A DNA stretch of 64,000 bases from an uncultured Ruminococcus sp. (lineage in GTDB: Bacteria > Bacillota > Clostridia > Oscillospirales > CAG-272): positions 7,705-71,704 of the forward strand of contig CACZAZ010000006.1 of assembly GCA_902779285.1 (NCBI GenBank), given 5' to 3'. The notes under the pieces were generated by a model. That model was not told where the DNA came from. It searched no databases and worked only from the letters and a program-made list of their open reading frames with translations. Each line of letters opens with the position of its first letter. Position 1 is the stretch's first letter. The position numbers and the translations under genes were made by a program. Positions 1,047 to 51,842 of this stretch are shown here, in pieces.

Positions 1047-1151
1047 CCCGATCCCCTCCCCGCTTTCCGGGGGTCGGCGGGCTCATTGCACAATGTTCGG
1101 ACCGAATTCTTGCTCAATTTACTCATTTGTAGTCAAAAACGGTCAAATCTA

Positions 1152-1180
1152 TTGCTTTTTTAAAATGCGTGCGGTAGAAT
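1152..1180 (+). promoter_or_regulatory. sigma-A type promoter for 1279-3006
   Basis: TTGCTT (1152-1157), exact 17-nt spacer, TAGAAT (1175-1180). Confidence 0.5.
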
Positions 1181-1278
1181 TATATCATTGGGAGAACTGT
1201 CGGCGGGAGCGTGCCGCAAGGTCAAACCGTTCCGCTCGCACCGAAAACGAACGTCCCGAATCAAAAAGGAGAAATCGT

Positions 1279-3006
1279 ATGAAAAAGAGAATCGTATCCC
1301 TGCTCCTGATCCTGTGTACCGTCTTCTCGATCCTCGCGCTCGCGTCTTGCGGTAAGGACGGCGATAAAGCGGAAACGACGGCGCAGGCGGCGCCCGGCGC
1401 GACCGAGACCGAAACGGAAGCAACGACCGTCGAGGTCACCACCGACAAGTGGGAAGAACTCGCGGAGAACGTCACGATGATCACGGAGCGCGACCGCAAA
1501 CTGAAGATCGCGATCGACATCAGCCGCAACGGTGTGAAAACGTCGAAAAACGACACGTACCTGAAGGGTCCCGACGAAGTCGTGGCAGACCTCACGCCCG
1601 AGATCGAAGTGATGGTCTACGAGCGGAACAAGGCGGCGAAAGACCTGTTCGGGCTGACGATCACGTACGAAACCTGGTCCGAATACTACGAGAAGCAGGC
1701 GCCGAAGATCGACACCCTGGTCAAGGGGAACGCCGAGGACGCCCCCGATCTGTTCGTCTGTCTGCTCTACGACCTGAACCTGGAACTTCTGAACGGATCG
1801 TTCAAGGATATCTGGTCGCTCCCCGGCTCGTTCTTCGATTTTTCGACCGAGGGCTGGCTGGAAGTGTGGATGGAGAATATGTCGCTCACCGGCGACCGCG
1901 CCTACGTCCTCGGCGGCGACTATTTCCTCGAACTTCTCCGCTCGGTGATGGTCGTCCCCTTCAATATGGATCTGATGGACGCGAACGCCTCCAAACTCGC
2001 TCCGATCATTCTGAAAGAGGGTGATTCGCTCGGTGCGGGCGAAGAACTCACGACCTACTTCTTCGACCTCGTGGACGAGGGTCGCTGGACCTTCGACGTG
2101 CTCGGCAAACTCTGCGAGGCGATCTGGGCCGACACCGACGGCGACGGGAACGACTCGATCGGCGATACGCTCGGCATCATCGCGGACGAGTACGGAGGAA
2201 AGACCGCGGTCGGTTTCATCTATTCCTGCGGCACTCCGCTGACCGAGCAGTACGTCGTCGAGGACGAGTTGAGCGCGTATAACGGCAAACAATGGATCAG
2301 ATACGCCGCCAGTTCCGAAGACGCGGGGCTGAACGACATCTTCGACGCGGTGTCGAAGGTGTTCAAGGGTAAAGGTTCCCTCTCGACCAGCGCCACCCAC
2401 TCCAGCAACACGCCCGAGGCGCCCGGTAAGGCGTATCACCTGACGAAGTTCGCCCAGAACGAAATTCTCTTCCTCGGCGCCGATCTGCTCGGCGACCTGG
2501 AGGACGACAAGATCAAGCAGATGACCTACCTGTATTCGGTGGTCCCCTGCCCCAAGATCGACGCCGACAAGGACACGGATTATAACACGATCATCGACAA
2601 CACCGGCGACGCGGGCGCCATCAACGTCAATACCAATCCCCGCAAGGCAAGAGCCCTCTCCGCGTACATCCAGTACTGCACCGAACATTCCGCCCATATC
2701 CGCGATGAGTTCCTGCAGATCGTGACCAAGTACAGGACCACGACCTACAACCAGGGCACCGACCGGATGCTCGACATCATCTACGAGGGCATCCTCTACG
2801 GGCGCGACAAGGCGGTCGACGATCTGTTCGGCGTGATCGATCGTACCAACCGCTGGCACGATCTGATGAAGCACGAGGATCACGAAGGCGACTCCGGTTA
2901 CATCTCGTCGAAGTACGAAGCGGTCGTCGCGTCCAAGCAGGCTCGGCTCGACAATATGCTGAAGACCTGGTACACGCTGCCGAAGGTCGAACCCACGGCG
3001 AACTGA
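1279..3006 (+). CDS. extracellular solute-binding-protein-like lipoprotein (large LplA-like family 1 type)
   Basis: ATG at 1279 is preceded by AAAGGAG. Signal peptide with lipobox LALASC. The T/A/E-rich linker and the WxFD...DTDGDGNDSIGD motif are typical of large sugar SBPs. The upstream part of the tracked ORF (1093-1278) has no RBS. Confidence 0.8.
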   Translation: MKKRIVSLLLILCTVFSILALASCGKDGDKAETTAQAAPGATETETEATTVEVTTDKWEELAENVTMITERDRKLKIAIDISRNGVKTSKNDTYLKGPDEVVADLTPEIEVMVYERNKAAKDLFGLTITYETWSEYYEKQAPKIDTLVKGNAEDAPDLFVCLLYDLNLELLNGSFKDIWSLPGSFFDFSTEGWLEVWMENMSLTGDRAYVLGGDYFLELLRSVMVVPFNMDLMDANASKLAPIILKEGDSLGAGEELTTYFFDLVDEGRWTFDVLGKLCEAIWADTDGDGNDSIGDTLGIIADEYGGKTAVGFIYSCGTPLTEQYVVEDELSAYNGKQWIRYAASSEDAGLNDIFDAVSKVFKGKGSLSTSATHSSNTPEAPGKAYHLTKFAQNEILFLGADLLGDLEDDKIKQMTYLYSVVPCPKIDADKDTDYNTIIDNTGDAGAINVNTNPRKARALSAYIQYCTEHSAHIRDEFLQIVTKYRTTTYNQGTDRMLDIIYEGILYGRDKAVDDLFGVIDRTNRWHDLMKHEDHEGDSGYISSKYEAVVASKQARLDNMLKTWYTLPKVEPTAN

Positions 3007-3085: not shown

Positions 3086-3197
3086 CAATTCACGAACGGC
3101 GCAGCCGTTCAATTCACGCCGCGAAGCGGCAATTCACGCGGTGCGTCGCACCGCAATTCATGCCCGCAGGGCAATTCATTCTCTTTTCGTGAATTAA
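3086..3197. repeat. Array A: five copies of CAATTCA(C/T)(G/T), each separated by a different perfect mini-hairpin
   Basis: Words start at 3086, 3110, 3130, 3154 and 3172. The separators are AACGGC-gca-GCCGTT, CCGC-gaa-GCGG, CGGTGC-gtc-GCACCG and CCC-gca-GGG. An inverted word GTGAATT lies at 3189-3195. Confidence 0.9.
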
Positions 3198-6895: not shown

Positions 6896-8239
6896 ATGAA
6901 ACTCCATTTTGATTTTGCGAAAACGACGGGAAAGATCAAGCCGATGCACGCCGTCGGGCAGCCCCCCGCGGATATCTCGGACGACGGGATCGAACACTCG
7001 ATGTTTCACTATCTGACCGAGGCGAATATCCCCTATTGCCGTATGCACGACACCTGCGGGAATTACGGGGCGAACGTGTTCGTCGACGTTCCGAACCTCT
7101 TCCGCGATTTCGACGCCGACGAGAACGATCCCGCGTCCTACGATTTCGCCTTCACCGACGCGCTGTTTGAGAAGATGGTCGAGGCGAAGCTCGAGCCCTA
7201 TTTCCGGCTCGGCGTGACCATCGAGAACGCGCACATGATCAAATCCTACCGCATCTTCCCGCCGAAGGACCCCGAAAAGTGGGCGCGGATCGCTGAACAT
7301 ATCGTCCGCCACTACAACGAGGGGTGGGCTGACGGCTATCGCTACGGCATCACCTACTGGGAGGTCTGGAACGAGCCGGATAACGAGGAATCGATCGAAC
7401 GGAACAATATGTGGAAGGGTACGAAGGAGCAGTACTACGACCTCTACGCCGCTACCGCGAAACGCCTGAAAGCGTGCTTCGGAGACACGATCAAGGTCGG
7501 CGGCTACGCGAACACGGGACTCTACCTCGGCTATATGGAGCAGGACGAGAAGTACAAGGAACCGCACGAGGTCACACATTGGGAAGAGCGCGCGATCTAC
7601 CACACCGAATTCCTGCGCGGCTTCCTTCGCCGCGTCAAGCGCGATAACCTCCCGCTCGACTTCTTCTCGCACCACAGTTATCTGTCGGTCGAGCGCACCA
7701 AACAGGTGCAGGCGTACGCCGAAAAGATCCTCGCGGAGGAGGGCTTCCCCGATATCGAGATCCACCTCAACGAGTGGAACACCGACCGCACGCTCGAGAC
7801 CCGCGGAACGACGAGAGCGGCGGCGGACGTGACCGCGATGATGATCGCGATGCAGGCGACGAAAATGTCCCTGATGTGCTACTACGACGCGCGTTTCAGC
7901 ACCAGCGTTTACGCGGGATTTTTCAATCCCCTGACCGAAAAGCCCTTCTGCACCCTTTACGCATTCACGGCGTTCGGCAAGCTCTACGCCCTCGGGCAGG
8001 AGGTCGAAACGACCGGCTCCGGTAAGGACGGGCTCTACGCGCTGGCGGCGACCGACGGGAAAACGCGCGGCGTGCTGATCACGAATATCGGAGACGAGAA
8101 GACCGTCGAAACCGACCTCGGCAGCGGCTATACCGCCTATCGGATCGACGAGAAGCATTTTCTGACCAAGACCCGCGTCTCGACCAAATCGATCAAACTC
8201 AAAAAGTACGACACGCTCTACCTCGAGAAGAACGGCTGA
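6896..8239 (+). CDS. TIM-barrel glycoside hydrolase, clan GH-A (GH39-like)
   Basis: ATG at 6896 after GAAAGGA. YWEVWNEPDN (acid/base region) and HLNEWN (nucleophile region) are typical of clan GH-A. No signal peptide. Confidence 0.6.
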   Translation: MKLHFDFAKTTGKIKPMHAVGQPPADISDDGIEHSMFHYLTEANIPYCRMHDTCGNYGANVFVDVPNLFRDFDADENDPASYDFAFTDALFEKMVEAKLEPYFRLGVTIENAHMIKSYRIFPPKDPEKWARIAEHIVRHYNEGWADGYRYGITYWEVWNEPDNEESIERNNMWKGTKEQYYDLYAATAKRLKACFGDTIKVGGYANTGLYLGYMEQDEKYKEPHEVTHWEERAIYHTEFLRGFLRRVKRDNLPLDFFSHHSYLSVERTKQVQAYAEKILAEEGFPDIEIHLNEWNTDRTLETRGTTRAAADVTAMMIAMQATKMSLMCYYDARFSTSVYAGFFNPLTEKPFCTLYAFTAFGKLYALGQEVETTGSGKDGLYALAATDGKTRGVLITNIGDEKTVETDLGSGYTAYRIDEKHFLTKTRVSTKSIKLKKYDTLYLEKNG

Positions 8240-11442: not shown

Positions 11443-11908
11443 CGCCGCGGCTCTCGTCGCCCTTCTCAAACGAAAGGGGCTGACCGTTTCGACGGCGGAA
11501 TCCTGCACCGGGGGCCTCGTCGCCTCGTCGATCGTCGACGTACCGGGCGCGAGCGCCGTTTTTCCGGGCGGCGCCGTGACCTACGCCGCGTCGGTCAAGA
11601 CCGCTTTGCTCGGCGTGCCGGCGGATCTGATCGAGACGCGCGGCGTGGTCAGCCACGACGTCGCCGCCGCGATGGCGAAGGGAGCGCAAAAGCGCTTCGG
11701 CACCGACCTCGCCGTGTCCGTCACCGGGGTCGCGGGACCCGACGGAGGGACCCCCGAAACGCCGGTCGGCTGCGTCTATATCGGAGTAGCGATCAAAGAT
11801 AAGACCGTCACGTTCCGCGAGGATATCCCGGGCGACCGGGAAGAGGTCAGACGCGGCGCCGCCGAACGGGCGATCCGCCGTTGTCTTGCCGAACTGACAA
11901 ACGAATGA
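11429..11908 (+). CDS. pncC: CinA C-terminal domain / nicotinamide-nucleotide amidohydrolase PncC-like
   Basis: [25 protein letters not shown] and [12 protein letters not shown] motifs. Overlaps the glyA stop by 14 nt. Confidence 0.85.
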
Positions 11909-23644: not shown

Positions 23645-23947
23645 CGGCGAGATCCGTTCTCTATGCGAGACCGGGGAGAATCGGGAGAGATCCCGTCTCC
23701 CCGGTCTCTCTTTTTCAAAAGGACGGAAGCCCGTCGTCGGGCGGTATCGCTCTTTTTTCCCCGTGACAAAAAATTGATATATTCAGACAAAAAAATGATA
23801 GCAAAAAAATGTGGAAAATGGTATCATTTTATTGTAGATATTTATTTAAAAGAGACAAATCGCGCGGGTCGGACGGAGACGCCTTCGTTTCCCCCCGAAC
23901 GGAAAAAAGGGCAAAGAGACCGGCGAAAAAAAGAAAGGGTCAAACGT

Positions 23948-25657
23948 ATGAAGAAACTCATCAGCGTTCTTTTGCTTCTCGCGATGCTCGCGATCTCCCT
24001 CGCCTCCTGCGGCAAAAAGGAGACGGTGACGACGACGGCGTCGGGAACCGATTCCGCGACCACCGCGCCCGACACCACCGTCGAGGAAACGACGGCGGAA
24101 GCGACCACCGACGAAAAGTGGGAAACCATCGCGTCCAGGATCTCGATCATCCAGGAGAAAGACCGTACGCTCCGGATCGAACTCAGTAAACACAGCGACG
24201 CCGAAAAGACCTCGAAGAACGACAAGTACGTGGTCGGTCCCGACGAAATCGTTCCCGGCACGACTCCGGTCATCGAGCAGATGGTTTACGAGCGCAACAA
24301 GGCGGCGTTCGATCTGCTCCGGGTCAAGATCGAAGAATACCTCTACTGGGACTACGATTGGAGCAAGCAGGCGGAGAAGATCAAGACGGTGGTCCAGGGC
24401 AACGCGAACGACGCGCCCGATCTGTTCGTCAACATGATCTCCGACCTCAATATGGCGACCCTCAACGGCGTGTTCAAGGATACCTGGTCGATCCCGAACG
24501 CCTACTTCGATTTTGAGGCGCAGGGCTGGATGACCGATTACATGAACAGTCTGTCGCTGACCGGCGACCGCAGCTACATCCTCGCCGGCGACTATTTCCT
24601 CGACGTTCTGCGCGCAATGGGCGTGATCCCCGTCAATATTACGATGATGGACAAGAACGCCGCGAAACTCGCGCCCGCGATCATAGGAGAGAACGAGACG
24701 ATCGGGGCAGGCGAGGAACTCTCGGCGCGCTTCTTCGACTTCGTCGAGGAGGGCAAGTGGACCTGGGACGTCCTCGGCAAACTCTGCGAGGCGATCTGGG
24801 TGGACGAGAACGGAGACGGACAGGACTCGATCACCGACGTTCTCGGTATCGTGACCGACAACTTCGGCGGGCTGGCGCACGAAATGTACATCTTCTCCGC
24901 GTCCGAGGACGACCTCTTTGAGGTGAGAACGATCGAGGACGAGAGCAGCAATTACAACGGTAAGGATTGGATCTACTACTCGCAGGATTCGACCGCGCTC
25001 GGCAGGATCTTCGACGCCGTCGCTGCCGTCCACACCGGCAAGGGATCCGTGATCACCACCGGCAACTTTCAGGCGAACACCGCCGAAAAACCCGGCGCCG
25101 CCTACCACCGGATGAAGTTTGCGGAGGGCTCGATGCTCACCGCCGGCACCGTCGTTCTCGGCGCGCTCGAGGACGAATCGTTCCAGCAGATGGAGGATAT
25201 CTTCACGGTCGTTCCGCTCCCCAAGATCAGCGTAGATAAGCACTACAACACGTGCATCCACACCATCGGCGACGCGGGTGCGATCAACGTCAACGTCAAC
25301 CCCCGTAAAGCAAGGGTCCTTTCTGCGTTCCTGCAGTACAACTGCGAGCATTCCGCCGAGATCCGCCGCGAGTTCCTCGAGATCGTGATGAAGTACAAGA
25401 CCACGGTCTACAACCAGGGCACCGACCGGATGCTCGACATCATCTACAACAGCGTCATCACCGGGCGCGACAAGATGATCGAGGATTGCATCGGCGGCAA
25501 CAACCGCTTCGCCATCATTATGCGGAGCGGCAACTGCGAAGTGACGTCGAGCGACCTCGCCAGCCAGTATCAGGCAGTCGTCACCTCAAAGCAGACGGCG
25601 CTGGACGGCATCATCCGCACCTGGTACACGCTGCCGAAGGTGGAGCCCGCCGAATAA
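23948..25657 (+). CDS. SBP-like lipoprotein, third paralog
   Basis: ATG at 23948. Signal peptide with lipobox SLASC. Colinear with the 1279-3006 product (WVDENGDGQDSITDVLGI, YNQGTDRML, RTWYTLPK). Confidence 0.8.
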   Translation: MKKLISVLLLLAMLAISLASCGKKETVTTTASGTDSATTAPDTTVEETTAEATTDEKWETIASRISIIQEKDRTLRIELSKHSDAEKTSKNDKYVVGPDEIVPGTTPVIEQMVYERNKAAFDLLRVKIEEYLYWDYDWSKQAEKIKTVVQGNANDAPDLFVNMISDLNMATLNGVFKDTWSIPNAYFDFEAQGWMTDYMNSLSLTGDRSYILAGDYFLDVLRAMGVIPVNITMMDKNAAKLAPAIIGENETIGAGEELSARFFDFVEEGKWTWDVLGKLCEAIWVDENGDGQDSITDVLGIVTDNFGGLAHEMYIFSASEDDLFEVRTIEDESSNYNGKDWIYYSQDSTALGRIFDAVAAVHTGKGSVITTGNFQANTAEKPGAAYHRMKFAEGSMLTAGTVVLGALEDESFQQMEDIFTVVPLPKISVDKHYNTCIHTIGDAGAINVNVNPRKARVLSAFLQYNCEHSAEIRREFLEIVMKYKTTVYNQGTDRMLDIIYNSVITGRDKMIEDCIGGNNRFAIIMRSGNCEVTSSDLASQYQAVVTSKQTALDGIIRTWYTLPKVEPAE

Positions 25658-25709: not shown

Positions 25710-27029
25710 ATGCAACTGTTTCACTCTGAAAAATGCGCCTGCGGAAAGATCCACGACGCCGGATTCGACCGAATGAACGTCGGATCCGGCGCCGTCAATA
25801 CGGTCGCCCGCGAAGTGATCCGCCTCGGCGGGACGCGGGTGTATCTTCTGTGTGACGAGAACACGGTAAAGGTCGGGGGCGAGCGGGTCGCAAAATTGCT
25901 TGCCGCCGCCGGGATCCCGGTCAAGTCCTGCGTGCTCCCCGCCTCCGTCGAGCCCGACGAAGCGGGCGTCCTCGCGGCGAAGGGACGTTTTGATCCCGCC
26001 TGCGACCTTGTCCTCGCGGTGGGCTCCGGGGTCGTGAACGATATCGGCAAGTGCGTGGCGTTCGACGCGGGCGTACCCTACGTCGTCGTCGCGACCGCCC
26101 CCTCGATGGACGGCTACGCGTCAAATTCGGCGGCGATGGTCGTCGGCGGGCTCAAGGTCTCGCTTCCCCGCCGATGCGCCTCCGTCTTGATCGGAGACAC
26201 CGATCTGCTCGCGTCCGCCCCCGACGAGATGCTGATCGCGGGGCTCGGGGATATGATCGCCAAATACGTCAGCATCGCGGAATGGCGGATCTCGCATATC
26301 GTCACCGGCGAATACTACTGCGAACGGGTCGCCGCGGCAGTCCGCGAGGCGCTCGCGACGTGCGTGAAAAACGCGAAGGGTCTGCTCTCCCGCGATCCCG
26401 CCGCGATCGAGGCGGTGTTCGAGGGGCTGGTGCTTTCGGGCGCCGCGATGAACTACGCGGGTCTGTCCCGTCCGGCGTCGGGCATGGAACACTACTTCTC
26501 TCACATCTGGGATATGCGAGGGCTCGCCTTCGGGACCCCGGTCGCGCTCCACGGCATCCAATGCGCCGTCGGAACGCTCTATGCCGCCTCGGTCTACGAC
26601 GCGCTGCTCAAAGTCAATCCCGATAAGGACAAGGCGCTCCGGGCGGTCAGGGCGTTTGACCGCGACGAGTACTTCAGAGAACTCCGCGCCTTCGTCGGTC
26701 CCGGGGCGGACGCGATGATCGAGGCGGAAAACCGCGACGGCAAATACGACCCCGCAAAGCACGAAGCGCGGCTGTCGGTCATCCTCGACCGTTGGAACGA
26801 GATCCAAACGATCATCCGCGAGGAGATCCCCCGGGCGAAGGAGATCCGTTCCCTGCTCGCCTCCATCGGCGCTCCGACCACCCCCGAGGGGATCGGGCAA
26901 AAGCGTTCGGAGTTGCCCCTGACCTTCGCCGCGACCCGCGACGTCCGCGACAAGTACGTCCTCTCGCGCTTGATCTGGGATCTCGGGCTCACCGATCTTG
27001 CCAACGCCCGCCTGCTCCGCGAGAACTGA
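25710..27029 (+). CDS. sn-glycerol-1-phosphate dehydrogenase-like (AraM/EgsA family, iron-ADH fold)
   Basis: GSGVVNDIGKCVAF, ATAPSMDGYAS and MEHYFSHIWD motifs match my recollection of the G1PDH family. 439 aa. Confidence 0.6.
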   Translation: MQLFHSEKCACGKIHDAGFDRMNVGSGAVNTVAREVIRLGGTRVYLLCDENTVKVGGERVAKLLAAAGIPVKSCVLPASVEPDEAGVLAAKGRFDPACDLVLAVGSGVVNDIGKCVAFDAGVPYVVVATAPSMDGYASNSAAMVVGGLKVSLPRRCASVLIGDTDLLASAPDEMLIAGLGDMIAKYVSIAEWRISHIVTGEYYCERVAAAVREALATCVKNAKGLLSRDPAAIEAVFEGLVLSGAAMNYAGLSRPASGMEHYFSHIWDMRGLAFGTPVALHGIQCAVGTLYAASVYDALLKVNPDKDKALRAVRAFDRDEYFRELRAFVGPGADAMIEAENRDGKYDPAKHEARLSVILDRWNEIQTIIREEIPRAKEIRSLLASIGAPTTPEGIGQKRSELPLTFAATRDVRDKYVLSRLIWDLGLTDLANARLLREN

Positions 27030-27034
27030 AAACA

Positions 27035-27064
27035 CGCCGCCTGCCGGATAACCGGCAGGCGGCG
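27035..27064 (+). terminator. terminator-like hairpin after 25710-27029
   Basis: CGCCGCCTGCCGG, loop ataa, CCGGCAGGCGGCG. Perfect 13-bp stem with only a weak T tract (it runs into Array B). Confidence 0.6.
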
Positions 27065-27182
27065 CTTCACTTTTGCCGAAGGCAAAAACATCACGATCGC
27101 CGGCGCTCCGTTTCGGAGTACCGGCGATCACTTCACTTTGCGCCGTGGCGCAAAACTTCACTTTGTTCGCGCCCGCGCGGAC
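27065..27182. repeat. Array B: four copies of C(T/A)TCAC, each followed by a different hairpin
   Basis: Words at 27065, 27089 (CATCAC), 27131 and 27156. Hairpins: TTTTGCC-gaa-GGCAAAA; GATCGCCGG[...CTCCG-ttt-CGGAG...]CCGGCGATC; TTTGCGC-cgtg-GCGCAAA; GTTCGCG-cccg-CGCGGAC. Confidence 0.85.
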
Positions 27183-27184
27183 GA

Positions 27185-28585
27185 TCAGTATTCCGCGGAG
27201 CCGACGGTGCGGGGATAGGGGATGACGTCGCGGATGTTCGAGACGCCCGTGAGGTACATGATGATCCGCTCGAAGCCGAGTCCGTAGCCGGCGTGACGCG
27301 CGCCCCCGAAGCGGCGGAGATTCAGGTACCACGAGTAGTCCTCCTCGCGCATCCCGAGTTCTTTGATCCGTTTGATCAGAAGGTCGTACCGCTCCTCGCG
27401 CTGCGACCCGCCGATGATCTCCCCGACGCCGGGGACCAGCAGATCCATCGCCGCAACCGTCTTGCCGTCGTCGTTCTGCCGCATATAGAACGCCTTGATA
27501 TCCTTCGGATAATCGGTGACGAAGATCGGCGCGCCGAACACCTTCTCGGTCAGATACCGTTCGTGCTCGGTCTGCAGATCCATCCCCCACGAGACGGGAT
27601 ACTTGAAGGGTTCCCCGCTCTTTTGCAGGATCTCGATCGCCTCGGTGTACTTGACCTCGCGGCAGTCGGATCCAACGAGGGTGTTCAGCCGCTCGGAAAG
27701 CCCCTTGTCCACGAAGTTGTTGAAGAACTCGATCTCGGCGGGACAGGTCGTGAGGACGTGCCGGATGATGTGCCGGATCATATCCCAGGCGAGTTTCATA
27801 CAGTCGGAGAGGTCCGCGAACGCGATCTCCGGCTCGATCATCCAGAACTCCGCCGCGTGGCGGGCGGTGTTCGAGTTCTCGGCGCGGAAGGTCGGACCGA
27901 AGGTGTAGATGTTCCCGAACGCCATCGCGTAGGTCTCGCCCTCGAGCTGTCCGGACACGGTCAGGTTCGCGCTCTTGCCGAAGAAGTCCTGCGAATAATC
28001 CACCTTGCCGTCCTCGGTTTTCGGCGGATCCTCGAGATCCAGCGTGGTGACGCGGAACATCTCGCCCGCGCCCTCGCAGTCGGACGCCGTGATCAGGGGC
28101 GTATGCACGTAGACGAAGCCGCGGTCGTGGAAGAAACTGTGGATGGCGTACGCCGCCTCGCTCCGCACGCGGAAGACGGCGGAGAACAGATTGGTGCGCG
28201 GCCGCAGATACGCGATCTCGCGCAGGTATTCGACGGTGTGCCGCTTTTTCTGCAGCGGATAATCGGGGGTCGACGTCCCCTCAATTTCGACCTTGTCCGC
28301 CTTGATCTCAAAGGGCTGTTTCGCCCCCGGGGTCAGTTCGAGTTTCCCCGTGACGATCAGCGCCGCCCCGACGTTCTGGGACGCGATCTCGTCGTAGTTG
28401 GCGATCTTCTCGCGCTCGAAGACGACCTGCACCGTCTTAAAGCAGCTCCCGTCGTAGAGATCGATAAAGCCGAACGCGCGGCTGTCGCGGATCGAGCGCG
28501 CCCAGCCCCCGACCGTGACGGTCTTCCCTCCGAGGGAAGAGGATTCGTCGTACAGCCGCCGGACGGCGGTCAGTTGTTCTTTCAT
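27185..28585 (-). CDS. asnS: asparagine--tRNA ligase
   Basis: 466 aa. OB-fold N-terminus ([21 protein letters not shown]) and class II motifs ([35 protein letters not shown]). Confidence 0.96.
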
Positions 28586-36262: not shown

Positions 36263-36378
36263 GTTATGAGACCCCCGTCGGGGTCGTTATGGTTTTGCCT
36301 TCCGTTTTTCGGACGGCAAAAGTTATGAGTTTGGCTTACGCCAAACGTTATGAATTCGGCTGTCGCCGAATGTTATAT
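36263..36378 (+). repeat. Array C: five copies of GTTATG(A/G)(G/A), each separated by a different hairpin
   Basis: Words at 36263, 36286, 36322, 36347 and 36372 (degenerate GTTATAT). Hairpins: ACCCC-cgtc-GGGGT; TTTTGCCTTCCG-ttttt-CGGACGGCAAAA; TTTGGC-ttac-GCCAAA; TTCGGC-tgtc-GCCGAA. Confidence 0.9.
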
Positions 36379-36457: not shown

Positions 36458-36814
36458 TTACAAGGTGTTCGTTTTAAGAGTTTTTACCGACGATACCAAC
36501 ATTCTGCGCAGCTCGATACAACTCTTTTGAAACTCGTCAAAGACCTCTTCTTTGATGCAATCGGTTTCTTTCAACAATTCGAGCCAATACTCGCTCTCAT
36601 TGCATTCTTTCAGCGCAATTTCAAGCTTTGAAACAAAGTCTTTCGTTCCCTGCGCATATTGCGCTTCGTGAAGGTTTGCGCCAACAGAGGTACCGGCGCG
36701 AAGCAACTGATTGAGCAGGACGGATTCGACCCGTTCCTCTTTAAGTTTTCGACAAAGAAAGACAATGCTTTTGGCAAAGTCTTTGGATTTGACTCGCAAA
36801 ACGCTATCGTTCAT
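36458..36814 (-). CDS. four-helix-bundle protein (23S rRNA intervening-sequence protein / Avd-like family)
   Basis: Family-typical motifs LLRAGTSVGANLHEAQYAQGTKDFVSKLEIALKECNESEYWLELL. Visibly lower GC than all neighbouring genes. Confidence 0.85.
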   Translation of the reverse strand: MNDSVLRVKSKDFAKSIVFLCRKLKEERVESVLLNQLLRAGTSVGANLHEAQYAQGTKDFVSKLEIALKECNESEYWLELLKETDCIKEEVFDEFQKSCIELRRMLVSSVKTLKTNTL

Positions 36815-36838
36815 TGTCCCCTCAAAACCAAGTTTTCA

Positions 36839-36984
36839 GTTATGAGTCCTGCTTGCGCCGAACGTTATGATATGATCGCCGGTTACTTCCAACGTGCCGT
36901 CAGGCACTCATAACTGCGCGCAGCGCATCATAACTCTAAACTCGCCGTCAGGCGATCATAACTGCAAAACGCGCTGCGTTTTGC
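36839..36984. repeat. Array D: GTTATGA x2 on plus, then TCATAAC x3 (the inverted word) alternating with different hairpins
   Basis: GTTATGA at 36839 and 36864. TCATAAC at 36908, 36928 and 36956. Hairpins: GTGCC-gtca-GGCAC; TGCGC-gca-GCGCA; TCGCC-gtca-GGCGA; GCAAAACGC-gct-GCGTTTTGC, which abuts the guaA stop. Confidence 0.9.
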
Positions 36985-43696: not shown

Positions 43697-43780
43697 GTTT
43701 TTTTCGAAAAAAGGGGCGGGAAGTCTCCGTCAGACTTCGACGGGAAATCCCGCCCGTTATGATTGTTCACAACTTTTCGC

Positions 43781-43809
43781 TTGACTTTTCACGCGGCGTC
43801 ATCTATACT
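43781..43809 (+). promoter_or_regulatory. sigma-A type promoter for 43889-45466
   Basis: TTGACT (43781-43786), 17-nt spacer, TATACT (43804-43809). Confidence 0.65.
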
Positions 43810-43888
43810 TATACTGTCTTTACTCTTTGTCACTCCACTCCTGCGGGCGCGCCCGGCGGGAGAATCCGAACGAAAAGAGACCGAAAAA

Positions 43889-45466
43889 ATGAACGTATGG
43901 AAACGTCTTCTTGCCGCCGCCCTGCTTCTTTCGGTTGCGGCGTCCCTCCTTGTCTCCTGCGGCAAGGACAAGAATAAGACCGAAGAGACCACGGCGGTTT
44001 CGACCGACGGGGACGCCACGGGCGATTTCGATCTGGTCTCGACGGCGGATCCGACCTTCGACTATTACCGCGCCGATCTGTCCGCTTACCTGACGCTCGC
44101 CGAGTCGGACTTCGACGGCGTCCGGGTCGCGCTCGATCTGGGCGAGAACGACGTGGACGATTATCTGAACGATTTTCTCCTGCCGTCCTACCGCACCCCG
44201 AATATGACGACCGATCAAGCCGTGAAGGACGGGGACAAGATCTACCTCTGGTACACCGGCTACGTCGACGACTTCCCCTTCGACGGCGGGAACAACCGGG
44301 ACGACGACGAGCCCCACGCGCTGAAGATCGGGGAGAGTGATCTGCCCTTCCCGGGGTTTGACGCCGCCTTGATCGGAAACGTCCCCGCGGATACCTCAAG
44401 CGAGTCGCCGCTGACCGTCAACGTCACCATCCCCGCCGACTATGAGGACGAACGGATCGCCGGAAAAGAAGCCCGCTTCAAAGTGGTGATCGAGGGGATC
44501 GTCGACGGAGACGGCACGGTGACCGACCGGGCTGTGCTGGACGGCGACACGGTCAAGATCCGGTACGTCGGGTACGTCGACGATTACGCCTTCTCCGGCG
44601 GGAGCAATATGGCGGAAGAGGACCCCTACGAACTGGTGATCGGGTCCGGCAGTTTCGTCGGCACGTTTGAAGAGCAGTTGATCGGCGTGATCCCGCAGGA
44701 TACCTCGAAAGATAACCTTCACACCATCACCGTCGCCTTCCCCGCCGAATACCGCAACACCGACCTCGCGGGCAAAGAGACCCGCTTCGACGTCGCGATC
44801 GCCGGGGTCTTCGACGGCACCTACACGATCCCCGAACTGACCGAGGACTTCATCAAAAACAAACTTCAGTTCGAGACGGAGGAAACCGACGTGATCGCCG
44901 CCTACCGCGCCGACGTCCTGAAGCAGATGCGCGAAAGCGCGGTCGCGGACCTCGAATCGCACAAGATCACCCGTACGCTGAAGACCCTGCGCGACTCGGT
45001 CGCCTTCGGTGAAACGCTCCCCGCGGGCGAAACGGAACTGTACGAGGGGCGCTGGCTGGAGATGATCGATTATTACTACGAGTATTACAACTATATGGCG
45101 GCGATCTACTACGGCTCCTCGTATTTCGAGGACCTGGACGACGCCGGACGCTGGTTCTTCGGTCTGGGGGCGGACGCCGACTGGAGAGCGTTTATGCACG
45201 AACAGGCGGAGGATATGGTGAAGGACAACCTGATCCTGAACTCGGTCGCGCGCCTTTACGGGGTCGTGATCTCGGAGGAGGACGCCAAGGAGTGGGTAAG
45301 AGAACAGGCGGAAAGCAACGAGGTCGACGCCGCGGCTGTCCTCGATCACTTCTCGCTCGAGGAGGTCTATTCGTCCTGCGCCGTGGAGAAAGCGCGCCGG
45401 ATCCTGCTCTCCCTCGCCGTGTACGAATACGGCGAACTCCCGATCGAAAACGTCACGGCAAACTGA
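43889..45466 (+). CDS. lipoprotein with two trigger-factor-type FKBP PPIase modules plus a trigger-factor C-terminal-like domain
   Basis: ATG at 43889. Lipobox LLVSC. Two copies of the TF PPIase signature (DGDKIYLWYTGYVDDFPFDGG...VNVTIPADYEDERIAGKEARFKVVIEGI and DGDTVKIRYVGYVDDYAFSGG...ITVAFPAEYRNTDLAGKETRFDVAIAGV). Confidence 0.8.
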   Translation: MNVWKRLLAAALLLSVAASLLVSCGKDKNKTEETTAVSTDGDATGDFDLVSTADPTFDYYRADLSAYLTLAESDFDGVRVALDLGENDVDDYLNDFLLPSYRTPNMTTDQAVKDGDKIYLWYTGYVDDFPFDGGNNRDDDEPHALKIGESDLPFPGFDAALIGNVPADTSSESPLTVNVTIPADYEDERIAGKEARFKVVIEGIVDGDGTVTDRAVLDGDTVKIRYVGYVDDYAFSGGSNMAEEDPYELVIGSGSFVGTFEEQLIGVIPQDTSKDNLHTITVAFPAEYRNTDLAGKETRFDVAIAGVFDGTYTIPELTEDFIKNKLQFETEETDVIAAYRADVLKQMRESAVADLESHKITRTLKTLRDSVAFGETLPAGETELYEGRWLEMIDYYYEYYNYMAAIYYGSSYFEDLDDAGRWFFGLGADADWRAFMHEQAEDMVKDNLILNSVARLYGVVISEEDAKEWVREQAESNEVDAAAVLDHFSLEEVYSSCAVEKARRILLSLAVYEYGELPIENVTAN

Positions 45467-51002: not shown

Positions 51003-51031
51003 ATTATACTATCTTTTGCAAGTTTTTGCAA
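51003..51031 (-). promoter_or_regulatory. sigma-A consensus promoter of the aminotransferase gene
   Basis: On the minus strand: TTGCAA (51031-51026, palindromic), 17-nt spacer, TATAAT (51008-51003). Confidence 0.65.
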
Positions 51032-51163
51032 CCGTTTTTGCAAAAATAAACGAAAACGGCGGCGTTTTTCTCCGTTTTGCGAAAAAAAGCGGCGTTCACG
51101 CCCCCCGTTTCGGTCAATTCGCCCTGTTTTCCCCGCGCGGAGAAGAAAAAATGCGCCCCCGTC

Positions 51164-51227: not shown

Positions 51228-51842
51228 ATGCGGACTTTGAGCGTTGAAACGATGGAGCGCGTGATCGGGTTTATCGACCGCTACCACGAAAAGAACGGCT
51301 ACACCCCGACCATCGCGGAGATCGCCGGGGGGCTCTCGCTCGCCGTCGGAACGATCCACAAATACCTGCACCGGATGGCGGAGAACGGGACGATCGAACT
51401 CGACGGGCGGCACGTCGTCACGCCGAATATCGCCCGCCGCCGGGAACTCTCGGCGCCCGTCGCGGGCGAGATCGCCTGCGGCGCGCCGGTCTGGGTCGAG
51501 GAGACGAGGGGCGAGTCGCTCCCCCTCCCCGCCGGCTTCTCCGATCCGGCCGAATACTTCTGGCTCCGCGCAAGCGGAAAATCGATGGTGAAACGCGGGA
51601 TCGACGACGGGGATTACGTTCTGATCCGCAGGCAACCGACCGCCGAGCCCGGGGAGACCGTCGCCGCCCTGATCGAAAACGAGGCGACCTTAAAGATCTT
51701 TCTGCCCGATCCCAAGCGCCGAAAAATCGTGCTTCGCGCGGCAAACGACGACAAAACGGCGTATCCCGACCAGATCTACGACGCGATCCTGATCCGCGGC
51801 GTCGCGGTCTACGTCTTAAAACCCCTACGAAAAACGCCTTGA
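51228..51842 (+). CDS. lexA: LexA repressor
   Basis: Winged-helix LexA N-domain (GYTPTIAEIAGGLSLAVGTIHKYLHRMAENG). VAGEIACGAPV cleavage region. S24 motifs ASGKSMVKRGIDDGD and ATLKIF. GGAGG RBS. Confidence 0.9.
   Translation: MRTLSVETMERVIGFIDRYHEKNGYTPTIAEIAGGLSLAVGTIHKYLHRMAENGTIELDGRHVVTPNIARRRELSAPVAGEIACGAPVWVEETRGESLPLPAGFSDPAEYFWLRASGKSMVKRGIDDGDYVLIRRQPTAEPGETVAALIENEATLKIFLPDPKRRKIVLRAANDDKTAYPDQIYDAILIRGVAVYVLKPLRKTP

Follow-up and report, generated by a model that had tools for sequence, protein, structure and literature searches.

A word-hairpin array between the convergent 3' ends of asnS and a G1PDH-like gene in an uncultured Ruminococcus sp., and its possible relation to the repeats that flank PF05635 genes

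Why should the spacer between two convergent genes hold five consecutive stem-loops, and why should most of these be preceded by nearly the same six nucleotides? This question is raised by a 64-kb stretch of DNA from an uncultured Ruminococcus sp. (the window, i.e. the whole stretch that was analysed). The spacer lies between the convergent 3' ends of a sn-glycerol-1-phosphate dehydrogenase-like gene (G1PDH-like; Fe-ADH_2; 25710-27029, + strand) and of asnS, encoding asparagine--tRNA ligase (27185-28585, - strand, stop codon at 27185-27187). It consists of an array of short words and hairpins, array B (27035-27184).

A first-pass annotation of the window had described a 13-bp hairpin, four words and a series of stem-loops running up to the asnS stop codon. 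This layout was confirmed by the sequence and by a repeat search, which recovered all inverted-repeat arms. The hairpin at 27035-27064, terminator-like on both strands, has a perfect 13-bp stem (CGCCGCCTGCCGG-ataa-CCGGCAGGCGGCG). On the + strand it is followed by word 1 (CTTCAC, 27065-27070), hairpin 1 (27071-27087; TTTTGCC-gaa-GGCAAAA, a C-GAA-G triloop), word 2 (CATCAC, 27089-27094), hairpin 2 (27095-27129; GATCGCCGG-cg-CTCCG-ttt-CGGAG-ta-CCGGCGATC, with one G.U pair on the + strand), word 3 (CTTCAC, 27131-27136), hairpin 3 (27137-27154; TTTGCGCC-gt-GGCGCAAA, or TTTGCGC-cgtg-GCGCAAA) and word 4 (CTTCAC, 27156-27161). The last element, hairpin 4 (27162-27184), is imperfect (ttt-GTTCGCG-cccg-CGCGGAC), has U.G pairs on the + strand only and abuts the asnS stop codon. 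Each word lies at the 5' foot of a different stem-loop, and units 1, 3 and 4 have a longer string in common, (A/G)CTTCACTTT(T/G). Hairpin 2 had been read as a hairpin nested within a hairpin; the inverted-repeat arms are real, but they belong to a single long hairpin, whose arms of 16 nt are interrupted by a small internal loop. The coding of a small peptide by the array was considered and rejected, as the unit periods (24, 20, 24 and 18 nt) are not all multiples of three.

The array was identical over the region in an independent Logan assembly (L083) and in an ENA scaffold (L081); the agreement with the independent assembly shows that it is not an assembly artefact. With 46 copies of CWTCAC on the + strand of the whole window, 0.07 are expected in a span of 97 nt, versus 4 observed. 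The probability of at least four copies is approximately 1e-6 per span and 1e-3 window-wide, and none of 200 shuffles had four copies of CWTCAC in any span. Folded as RNA, the + strand reached -87.5 kcal/mol (z -8.3 against dinucleotide shuffles); by the same comparison the + strand as DNA had a z of -7.6 and the - strand as RNA, which folds less cleanly, a z of -6.3. Nearest-neighbour energies, whether for RNA or DNA, did not distinguish the two strands. Whether as RNA or as single-stranded DNA, the + strand has a minimum-energy fold that consists of five separate hairpins and leaves all four words unpaired.

The hairpin at 27035-27064 scored as an intrinsic terminator on both strands, with the better T-tract on the - strand (the direction of asnS), and hairpin 3 passed a lenient terminator scan. 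Hairpins 1, 2 and 4 failed the lenient scan, which looks for a U/T-tract after the hairpin. Since only one or two of the five hairpins are terminator-like, the spacer holds more structure than termination needs, as had been claimed at the outset. The first-pass annotation had also named assignment to a known repeat family as an outcome that would count against its reading, and no Rfam family claims the block: with Rfam 15 there was no match in the whole window at gathering thresholds, and at E<=10 the array B region gave only sub-threshold generic hairpin matches. A literature search did not find word-hairpin arrays of this design described.

Relatives were chosen as a graded series of homologs of the G1PDH-like protein, and the contigs around these homologs were compared. 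Array B was also found next to asnS in L084, L209 and L212, in which the identity of the G1PDH protein is 85-92%, and an alignment of the array was made from these three and the window (four lineages). Among its columns, 6 of 104 were variable in the stems, 3 of 24 in the words, 4 of 15 in the linkers and 10 of 18 in the loops. For third codon positions in the same four lineages, the variable ones were 95 of 467 (asnS) and 179 of 440 (G1PDH-like gene), or 20-41%. The stems vary 3-7 times less than synonymous sites and, on this comparison, are under purifying selection, and the loops change at least as fast as silent sites. The word, originally presented as the constant part of the design, turned out not to be its best-conserved part; with 3 of 24 variable columns against 20-41% of synonymous sites, the words are only moderately conserved and not demonstrably more constrained than the latter. 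Word 1 is TTTCAC in L084, and word 2 is CGTCAC in L084 and CATCAT in L209; words 3 and 4, and hairpin 2, are invariant in the four lineages.

The manner of change is also informative. In the stem of the terminator-like hairpin two compensatory pair changes were found among the four lineages, and its loop differs in each of them (ATAA, TTTT, TTGT and GTAATC). Loops of array B are replaced en bloc, as in hairpin 3, where CGTG in the window stands against TCCT in the three other lineages. The array contains three G.U pairs and no A.C mismatch on the + strand, which shows that folding takes place on the strand that carries CTTCAC. Inside the array, copies of the word are identical while their stems are unrelated, whereas a comparison of relatives shows the stems to be conserved better than the words; arrays are therefore not simple tandem duplications that diverged afterwards. 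Either each unit was assembled beside a word that was already there, or selection keeps the words and favours stems that differ.

In other relatives (L087, L088, L211 and L474-L476) the block from the asnS stop codon to the far terminator is a different array, composed of CAATTCAY words and hairpins and of opposite polarity. It is made up of ATGAATTG/GTGAATTG words (CAATTCAY on the asnS strand) that alternate with three small hairpins, together with an asnS-proximal terminator. Both alleles have four words and three inner hairpins. The break between them falls exactly at the asnS stop codon, and asnS is 99.2-99.3% identical at the nucleotide level between the window and L084, which both carry array B, and L087, which carries the other allele. 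The distribution of the two alleles does not follow G1PDH identity. Unrelated sequence without words in related strains had been put forward as the sign of a chance arrangement. Unrelated sequence of similar length was indeed found, but it is itself a word-hairpin array, which argues against chance and for a family of exchangeable modules.

The word of the second allele, CAATTCAY, is also the word of array A in the window (3086-3196, + strand). Array A lies between a terminator and a promoter and contains CAATTCAC three times and CAATTCAT twice, with four different G...C hairpins, followed by one inverted word. The design of constant word and variable palindrome that was said to be shared by arrays A and B is real, and it is matched by two further arrays, which brings the window to four (A, B, C and D). 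Array C (36263-36378, - strand) has five copies of TCATAAC (five of GTTATGA on the + strand) and four different hairpins, and lies downstream of a PF05635 gene and its terminator. Array D (36836-36980), between the guaA stop codon and the start of the same PF05635 gene, has on the gene strand three copies of AGTTATGA and then two of TCATAAC, with hairpins; on the + strand it reads as two copies of AGTTATGA and then three of TCATAACT. The words are largely confined to these arrays: six of the eight copies of AATTCAY in the 64 kb are inside array A, and eight of the ten copies of GTTATGA are likewise inside arrays. A common core (TTCAC) had been noticed for the words of arrays A and B; TCAY is the core shared by the words of all arrays (CAATTCAY, C(T/A)TCAY and TCATAAC), and all of these are oriented in the same way with respect to their hairpins. 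No relationship is seen among stems, whether of one array or of different arrays, the shared features being the word and the G...C ends alone.

Metagenomes were searched for sets of three CAATTCAY words spaced as far apart as a hairpin would require; this yielded at least 120 loci, about 20 of which show the array design, and CAATTCAY-hairpin arrays were found in five viral contigs. Among 69 distinct spacers between CAATTCAY words, 57 are perfect hairpins from end to end, running from the G after one word to the C that opens the next. Their stems are 3-7 bp long, the closing pair is C-G in 48 of the 57, and most loops are GNA triloops or GNNA tetraloops. On the word strand, 38 of 74 loops belong to the G..A type, versus 1 of 74 for the complementary type. 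The commonest array has four words and three hairpins. Blocks are often paired in opposite orientation (convergent or divergent), each half showing the loop bias on its own word strand. Units with TCATAAC have the same polarity as those with CAATTCAY, and a search of viral contigs for three copies of TCATAAC gave 120 matches, none with hairpin spacers. Of 204 flanks of intergenic hairpins, 9 gave a unit of TCAY and a hairpin when single units were looked for, and almost all of the 9 belong to arrays. Apart from GAA, the loops of array B are not of the G..A type, which makes it an atypical member.

One viral contig (L379, 5 kb), which encodes a terminase and a portal protein, carries a double array in each of three intergenic spacers; the three are paralogous and have the same order of units, and one copy is inverted. 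About 85 nt are nearly identical between the copies and only the triloops are completely different (gaaatc-GCA/CTT/TCT-gattt and aagc-ACA/TCC/TGC-gctt). None of 79 relatives of its terminase (<=69% identity) had such arrays, and many of them have overlapping gene junctions at the places where L379 has arrays. No match to the element of L379 was found in a cultured phage.

The gene bracketed by arrays C and D (36458-36814, - strand) encodes a four helix bundle protein of 118 aa (PF05635/TIGR02436; 23S rRNA IVS protein, Avd-like) and has an atypical codon usage. The Avd protein of diversity-generating retroelements is considered a homolog of the PF05635 family (PMC10053308). One search retrieved more than 8000 close relatives of the protein; none were found in viral contigs. 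On the gene strand the locus consists of guaA, three AGTTATGA-hairpin units, two TCATAAC units, a ribosome-binding site, the PF05635 gene, a terminator and five TCATAAC-hairpin units. The order of guaA and the PF05635 gene is kept in two other species, in which the spacers hold five to eight GTTATGA/TCATAAC words. These words persist at a GuaA identity of only 66-75%, with species-specific hairpins and with the rest of the spacer changed, and one unit shared between spacers differs only in its loop. The PF05635-adjacent arrays of the window, L213 and L223 are orthologous and count as a single observation.

Words of the type of array B were found beside a PF05635 gene in an unrelated Clostridia MAG (L013, positions 170-345), where ATGAAG with a hairpin and then CTTCAT/CATCAT with a hairpin lie directly upstream of a PF05635 homolog that appears truncated by a stop in frame. 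In addition, plasmid-borne PF05635 genes from unrelated taxa were inspected (Nostoc, Planktothrix, Gloeocapsa, Euhalothece, Bernardetia, Treponema, Chlorohelix and Monoglobus). All eight have repeats of a word of about 7 nt directly at the start and stop codons. The upstream and downstream words are clearly inverted in at least six of the eight, the arrangement in Treponema and Planktothrix being more complex, and several of these genes are small cassettes inside defence operons. PF05635 homologs in two metagenome contigs (L192 and L201) also adjoin word repeats. Word arrays were present beside every PF05635 gene examined, in at least nine lineages from several phyla, with clearly inverted copies around most of them; they are regular companions of this gene family. 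The hairpins between the words are GC-rich and belong to the arrays of gut Clostridia. Array B shows the repeated word expected of this proposed class of arrays (6-8 nt, three or more copies at short intervals on one strand). Arrays C and D adjoin the PF05635 gene and face each other across it as inverted partners. Array B has no inverted partner array and no adjoining PF05635 gene, the nearest one (36458-36814) being 9 kb away.

Based on the anatomy, the stem conservation, the allele replacement, the distribution of the family and the association with PF05635, we propose that array B belongs, as an orphan module, to a dispersed family of REP/BIME-like repeats that is tied to PF05635 cassettes, and that it is likely to serve as a stem-loop stack at the 3' end of asnS; we regard this explanation as evenly poised between right and wrong. 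The module would comprise four words and three or four hairpins, and the family would inhabit uncultured gut Clostridia and at least one of their phages. Its unit would be a short A/T-rich word with a TCAY core (CTTCAY/CATCAY, CAATTCAY or TCATAAC) followed at once by a GC-rich stem-loop of which the sequence is free and the pairing is kept. Units would be strand-specific, the hairpins folding locally on the word strand and the words staying single-stranded. Word arrays would form the cognate flank of PF05635 (Avd-like) gene cassettes, and the gene-less arrays A and B would stand to these cassettes as dispersed REPs stand to the REPs that flank a RAYT gene. Modules would be gained, lost and swapped as blocks at the DNA level, as the two unrelated array alleles of the asnS 3' spacer suggest. 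The number of arrays in the genome is an extrapolation from the 64 kb surveyed.

For asnS itself, array B comes after the stop codon and before the one hairpin that offers this gene a good U-tract, which makes it a likely stem-loop stack in the asnS 3' UTR and in the spacer between the convergent genes. Such a stack would hold up 3' exonucleases and insulate transcription, and may in this way affect the asnS mRNA. Judging from adjacency only, the words may be a protein recognition element, for which the PF05635 protein is the obvious candidate. The modules are presumed to be mobile. No transposase or other mobilising enzyme was found among the proteins scanned, and a four-helix bundle of 118 aa is not an obvious catalyst. 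The strand-specific loop bias in both orientations of the blocks and the wholesale replacement of loops point to hairpins that form in single-stranded DNA; transcription must also run through those arrays that immediately precede a ribosome-binding site within an operon.

A wider formulation is conceivable, although we advance it tentatively and think it less probable than the explanation above. PF05635/TIGR02436 genes and their arrays of words of about 7 nt may together constitute a widespread, undescribed element, with hairpins that extrude in vivo and a protein that recognises the single-stranded words, array B being one orphan array. The element would be a small cassette bracketed by inverted word arrays, with intergenic sites as well as sites inside defence operons, behind guaA and within rRNA helices. 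It would shed or seed orphan arrays, and in gut Clostridia its words would be separated by orthogonal GC-rich hairpins with loops that are replaced wholesale.

Several other explanations were weighed against that of an orphan PF05635-associated module. The strand-specific loop bias (38 of 74 versus 1 of 74) would be expected of REP-type single-stranded DNA elements mobilised by an HUH/Y1 transposase (RAYT or IS200/IS605-like) that recognises a hairpin and the adjacent TCAY, in which case the association with PF05635 would be incidental. C-GNA-G triloops form very stable mini-hairpins in single-stranded DNA. Blocks in both orientations, each biased on its own word strand, fit the same idea, as do the extragenic, post-terminator position of the arrays, the evidence of gain in a phage and of allele replacement at asnS, and the wholesale loop replacement, which is expected of hairpins extruding in DNA. 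However, no Y1/HUH gene was seen among the proteins tested, RAYTs and TnpA recognise specific hairpins whereas the stems here are not conserved between units, and PF05635 genes are word-flanked in all of the at least nine lineages examined; we consider this explanation unlikely. A functional RNA is another candidate, either as a protein sponge or regulatory 3' UTR that displays the words, or with the words as endonuclease sites between protective hairpins that yield stabilised ends. Words that stay unpaired between stable hairpins, G.U pairs on one strand only, purifying selection on the stems and the arrays of the phage and of PF05635 leaders, which lie in operon spacers directly 5' of ribosome-binding sites and must be transcribed, would all suit an RNA. 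Yet little transcription is expected of arrays A and C, which follow terminators and precede promoters, and the halves of double arrays carry their favourable loops on different strands, which one transcript cannot both use. Moreover, the asnS mRNA would read array B in antisense (GUGAAG), whereas the G.U evidence favours the + strand. This explanation seems rather unlikely to us.

Array B might also be a purely local terminator or insulator stack, its repeated word being a by-product of tandem duplication of a unit of word and terminator. Its position between convergent 3' ends, the 13-bp hairpin that is terminator-like both ways, the terminator scan passed by hairpin 3, the (A/G)CTTCACTTT(T/G) string of units 1, 3 and 4 and the drift of the words among relatives are as such an origin would have it. 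However, three or four of the five hairpins are without a U-tract, and identical words with unrelated stems inside the array, combined with stems that are better conserved than words between relatives, are the opposite of what duplication and divergence predict. Unrelated loci, other taxa and a phage also have the design, with related words, and another array of the same design takes the place of array B in strains with 99% identical asnS, which makes a purely local origin improbable. By far the least credible possibility is that the arrays are neutral debris of replication slippage and palindrome instability in dispensable spacers, with neither function nor mobility. Loops that change en bloc and 'safe' intergenic positions agree with debris, but stems that vary 3-7 times less than synonymous sites, words that persist in orthologous spacers at 66-75% GuaA identity while the rest of the spacer has changed, and the strong strand bias of the loop type do not.

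Three suggestions on how units might arise were also considered. An origin of the words as target-site duplications is attractive, n hairpins coming with n+1 words, but was not adopted, as many taxa have the same words and no duplication is seen at nested or interrupted hairpins. As the stems do not form nested prefixes of a single terminus, a transposon-excision footprint was rejected, and so was loop inversion by template switching, since alternative loops are not reverse complements of each other.

If the explanation as an orphan PF05635-associated module is correct, the word arrays would be the first concrete nucleic-acid partner for PF05635, which is among the most abundant uncharacterised small protein families. 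Gut Clostridia and their phages, for which no REP-like repeat system has been described, would thereby gain one, and the arrays would account for puzzling hairpin-rich spacers of 100-250 nt and for the breaks in metagenome assemblies at such places. The design itself is unusual, in that a constant single-stranded word is combined with a stem that is free yet maintained and with a hypervariable loop.

Among known systems, the closest analogues are REP/BIME of E. coli and Pseudomonas and SMAG of Stenotrophomonas. These too are short extragenic palindromes with a short conserved head motif, arranged in tandem and inverted clusters after stop codons and between convergent genes, and in the REP/RAYT system a small gene is likewise flanked by its own repeats in inverted orientation. 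Roles reported for REPs are those of mRNA 3' stabilisers and insulators. As in REP/BIME, where the extragenic imperfect palindromes measure about 20-40 nt, the palindromes described here form tandem or inverted clusters. REPs are dispersed over the genome in high copy number; of the present arrays, four occur in the 64 kb of this genome that were surveyed and three in a 5-kb phage contig. They lack a conserved palindrome consensus: a REP palindrome is conserved within its family and has the head motif GTAG, whereas here only a word of 6-8 nt is shared and every stem is different. The gene flanked by REPs encodes a Y1 transposase (RAYT); no Y1_Tnp was found among the proteins scanned, and the only array-flanked gene is that of the PF05635 four-helix bundle. 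The arrays are a variation on the theme of dispersed intergenic palindromes, with a plausible link to an abundant uncharacterised protein family.

The intervening sequences (IVSs) of 23S rRNA share the protein family and are sporadically present cassettes, with an ORF enclosed by mutually inverted sequences that are able to form a long stem. However, classical IVSs lie inside rRNA helices and are excised by RNase III, whereas the present cassettes lie between protein-coding genes, they are flanked by 7-nt words in arrays, to which hairpins are added in Clostridia, and there are orphan arrays such as B without an ORF or partner. Integron attC sites also have palindromes conserved in structure rather than sequence, and 7-nt core words (RYYYAAC/GTTRRRY, cf. 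TCATAAC/GTTATGA). It is in the folded single-stranded form that attC sites are recognised, and they have small cassettes without promoters between them. However, attC sites measure 57-141 nt, with core words inverted around the palindrome and with extrahelical bases, whereas the present hairpins are 11-35 nt and the words are direct repeats on either side of each hairpin; no intI was seen, the neighbours of the arrays are housekeeping genes and most arrays enclose no cassette.

The regular alternation of constant and variable elements recalls CRISPR, but the logic is inverted: the constant part is an unstructured 6-8 nt and the variable part a palindrome, in 3-5 units of 17-43 nt, whereas CRISPRs have repeats of 23-50 nt, non-palindromic spacers of similar length and cas genes. 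No cas gene was seen near any array. A ToxI-like RNA of a type III toxin-antitoxin system, in which a unit of about 36 nt is repeated identically in tandem ahead of the gene for an endoRNase toxin, was excluded for array B, as its units differ in sequence and length and its neighbours are asnS and the G1PDH-like gene. Finally, the cyanobacterial STRR heptamers and the STAR elements of S. aureus are likewise short intergenic words, of unknown function. In STRR and STAR the words are contiguous or have conserved spacers, whereas successive words of array B are separated by GC-rich hairpins, each of them different. If the proposed link is correct, it would suggest a purpose for heptamer repeats beside PF05635 genes, such as the STRR-like runs of cyanobacteria. 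Heptamer runs of the STRR kind flank the PF05635 genes of Nostoc, Planktothrix, Gloeocapsa and Euhalothece.

The asnS gene next to array B (window 27185-28585) shares 99.3% nucleotide identity with that of L084, a relative that also carries array B, whereas the adjacent G1PDH-like gene (window 25710-27029) is only 91.4% identical. This difference indicates that the asnS/G1PDH-like region is a mosaic, produced by a recent recombination with a breakpoint within or near array B (window 27035-27184). In two relatives, L087 and L209, one terminator hairpin of about 30 nt was found twice, behind G1PDH and behind a sigma-70-like gene (L087:8815-8850 and 11860-11895; L209:3995-4030 and 7040-7075). The two copies enclose an insert with Fic and sigma-like genes, which is absent from the window and from the relatives L212, L088 and L474.

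Relatives have another type of repeat behind the G1PDH stop codon (L084:11325-11410; L088:1655-1710), in which the word ACAGGACTT occurs 3–4 times with a period of 21–22 nt and spacers that are not palindromic. The final copy in L088 and L212 continues into ...GGACTCATAAC, linking this repeat with the TCATAAC word.

Hairpin loops were compared between array B and its counterparts in L084, L209 and L212, among the paralogous copies on the phage contig L379, and among L087, L088 and L474, which carry a CAATTCAY array at the locus. Both between close relatives and between paralogs, loops were exchanged en bloc, 3–4 nt at once, with stems and words unchanged. The alternative loops in these three comparisons were not reverse complements of each other.

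The minus strand of metagenome contig L205 (about 894–2300) contains long CAATTCAY arrays of 14–15 units with a period of 36 nt. Their spacers (27–28 nt) are unique and non-palindromic and have an internal ...tagggcgcg... motif in common; these arrays use the same word but are of another type. Two contigs that also bear CAATTCAY arrays show the word-hairpin design, a short constant word with a variable stem-loop, with other words, namely ATATCGA / ATTTCGA and (A)ATTTAG (L089:889-968, L094:1830-1929).

Downstream of guaA, on the minus strand, the window contains a PF05635/TIGR02436 four-helix-bundle (Avd-like) gene (36458-36814), bracketed by TCATAAC/GTTATGA word-hairpin arrays at 36263-36378 and 36836-36980. 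Its codon-usage score, 9.3, is far lower than those of its neighbours (40–300). In L214, L215 and L217 (about 1060–1500), guaA and the PF05635 gene are separated by an integrative element carrying Rep_OBD and HTH_17 genes, and the junction carries a second copy of the guaA 3' end and of the entire word-hairpin array of about 200 nt. On plasmids of Monoglobus, Treponema, Nostoc, Bernardetia, Euhalothece, Chlorohelix, Planktothrix and Gloeocapsa (L557-L564), PF05635 genes form small cassettes between defence-operon genes, at hsdS|hsdR, drmD|pglX, helicase|methylase and DUF1156|Swt1-HEPN junctions. Arrays of words of about 7 nt lie at the start and stop codons of each of these genes, the two sides being mutually inverted in most cases.

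Two large paralogs in the window, of 637 and 664 aa (1093-3006 and 23663-25657; about 52% identical), precede Array A and the G1PDH gene, respectively. No Pfam domain was found in either; one has a weak match to the PG1828 lipoprotein. At 43698-43772, a run of three hairpins followed by GTTATGATTGTTCAC, a fusion of two words of the word-hairpin family, lies just upstream of the promoter-like site of an FKBP/trigger-factor-like gene (43763-45466). Upstream of a lexA-like gene (51228-51842), the palindromes TTTTGCAA and TTGCAAAAA overlap at 51016-51102, where small hairpins are also present. Their design differs from that of the word-hairpin arrays, and the site is possibly an operator region.
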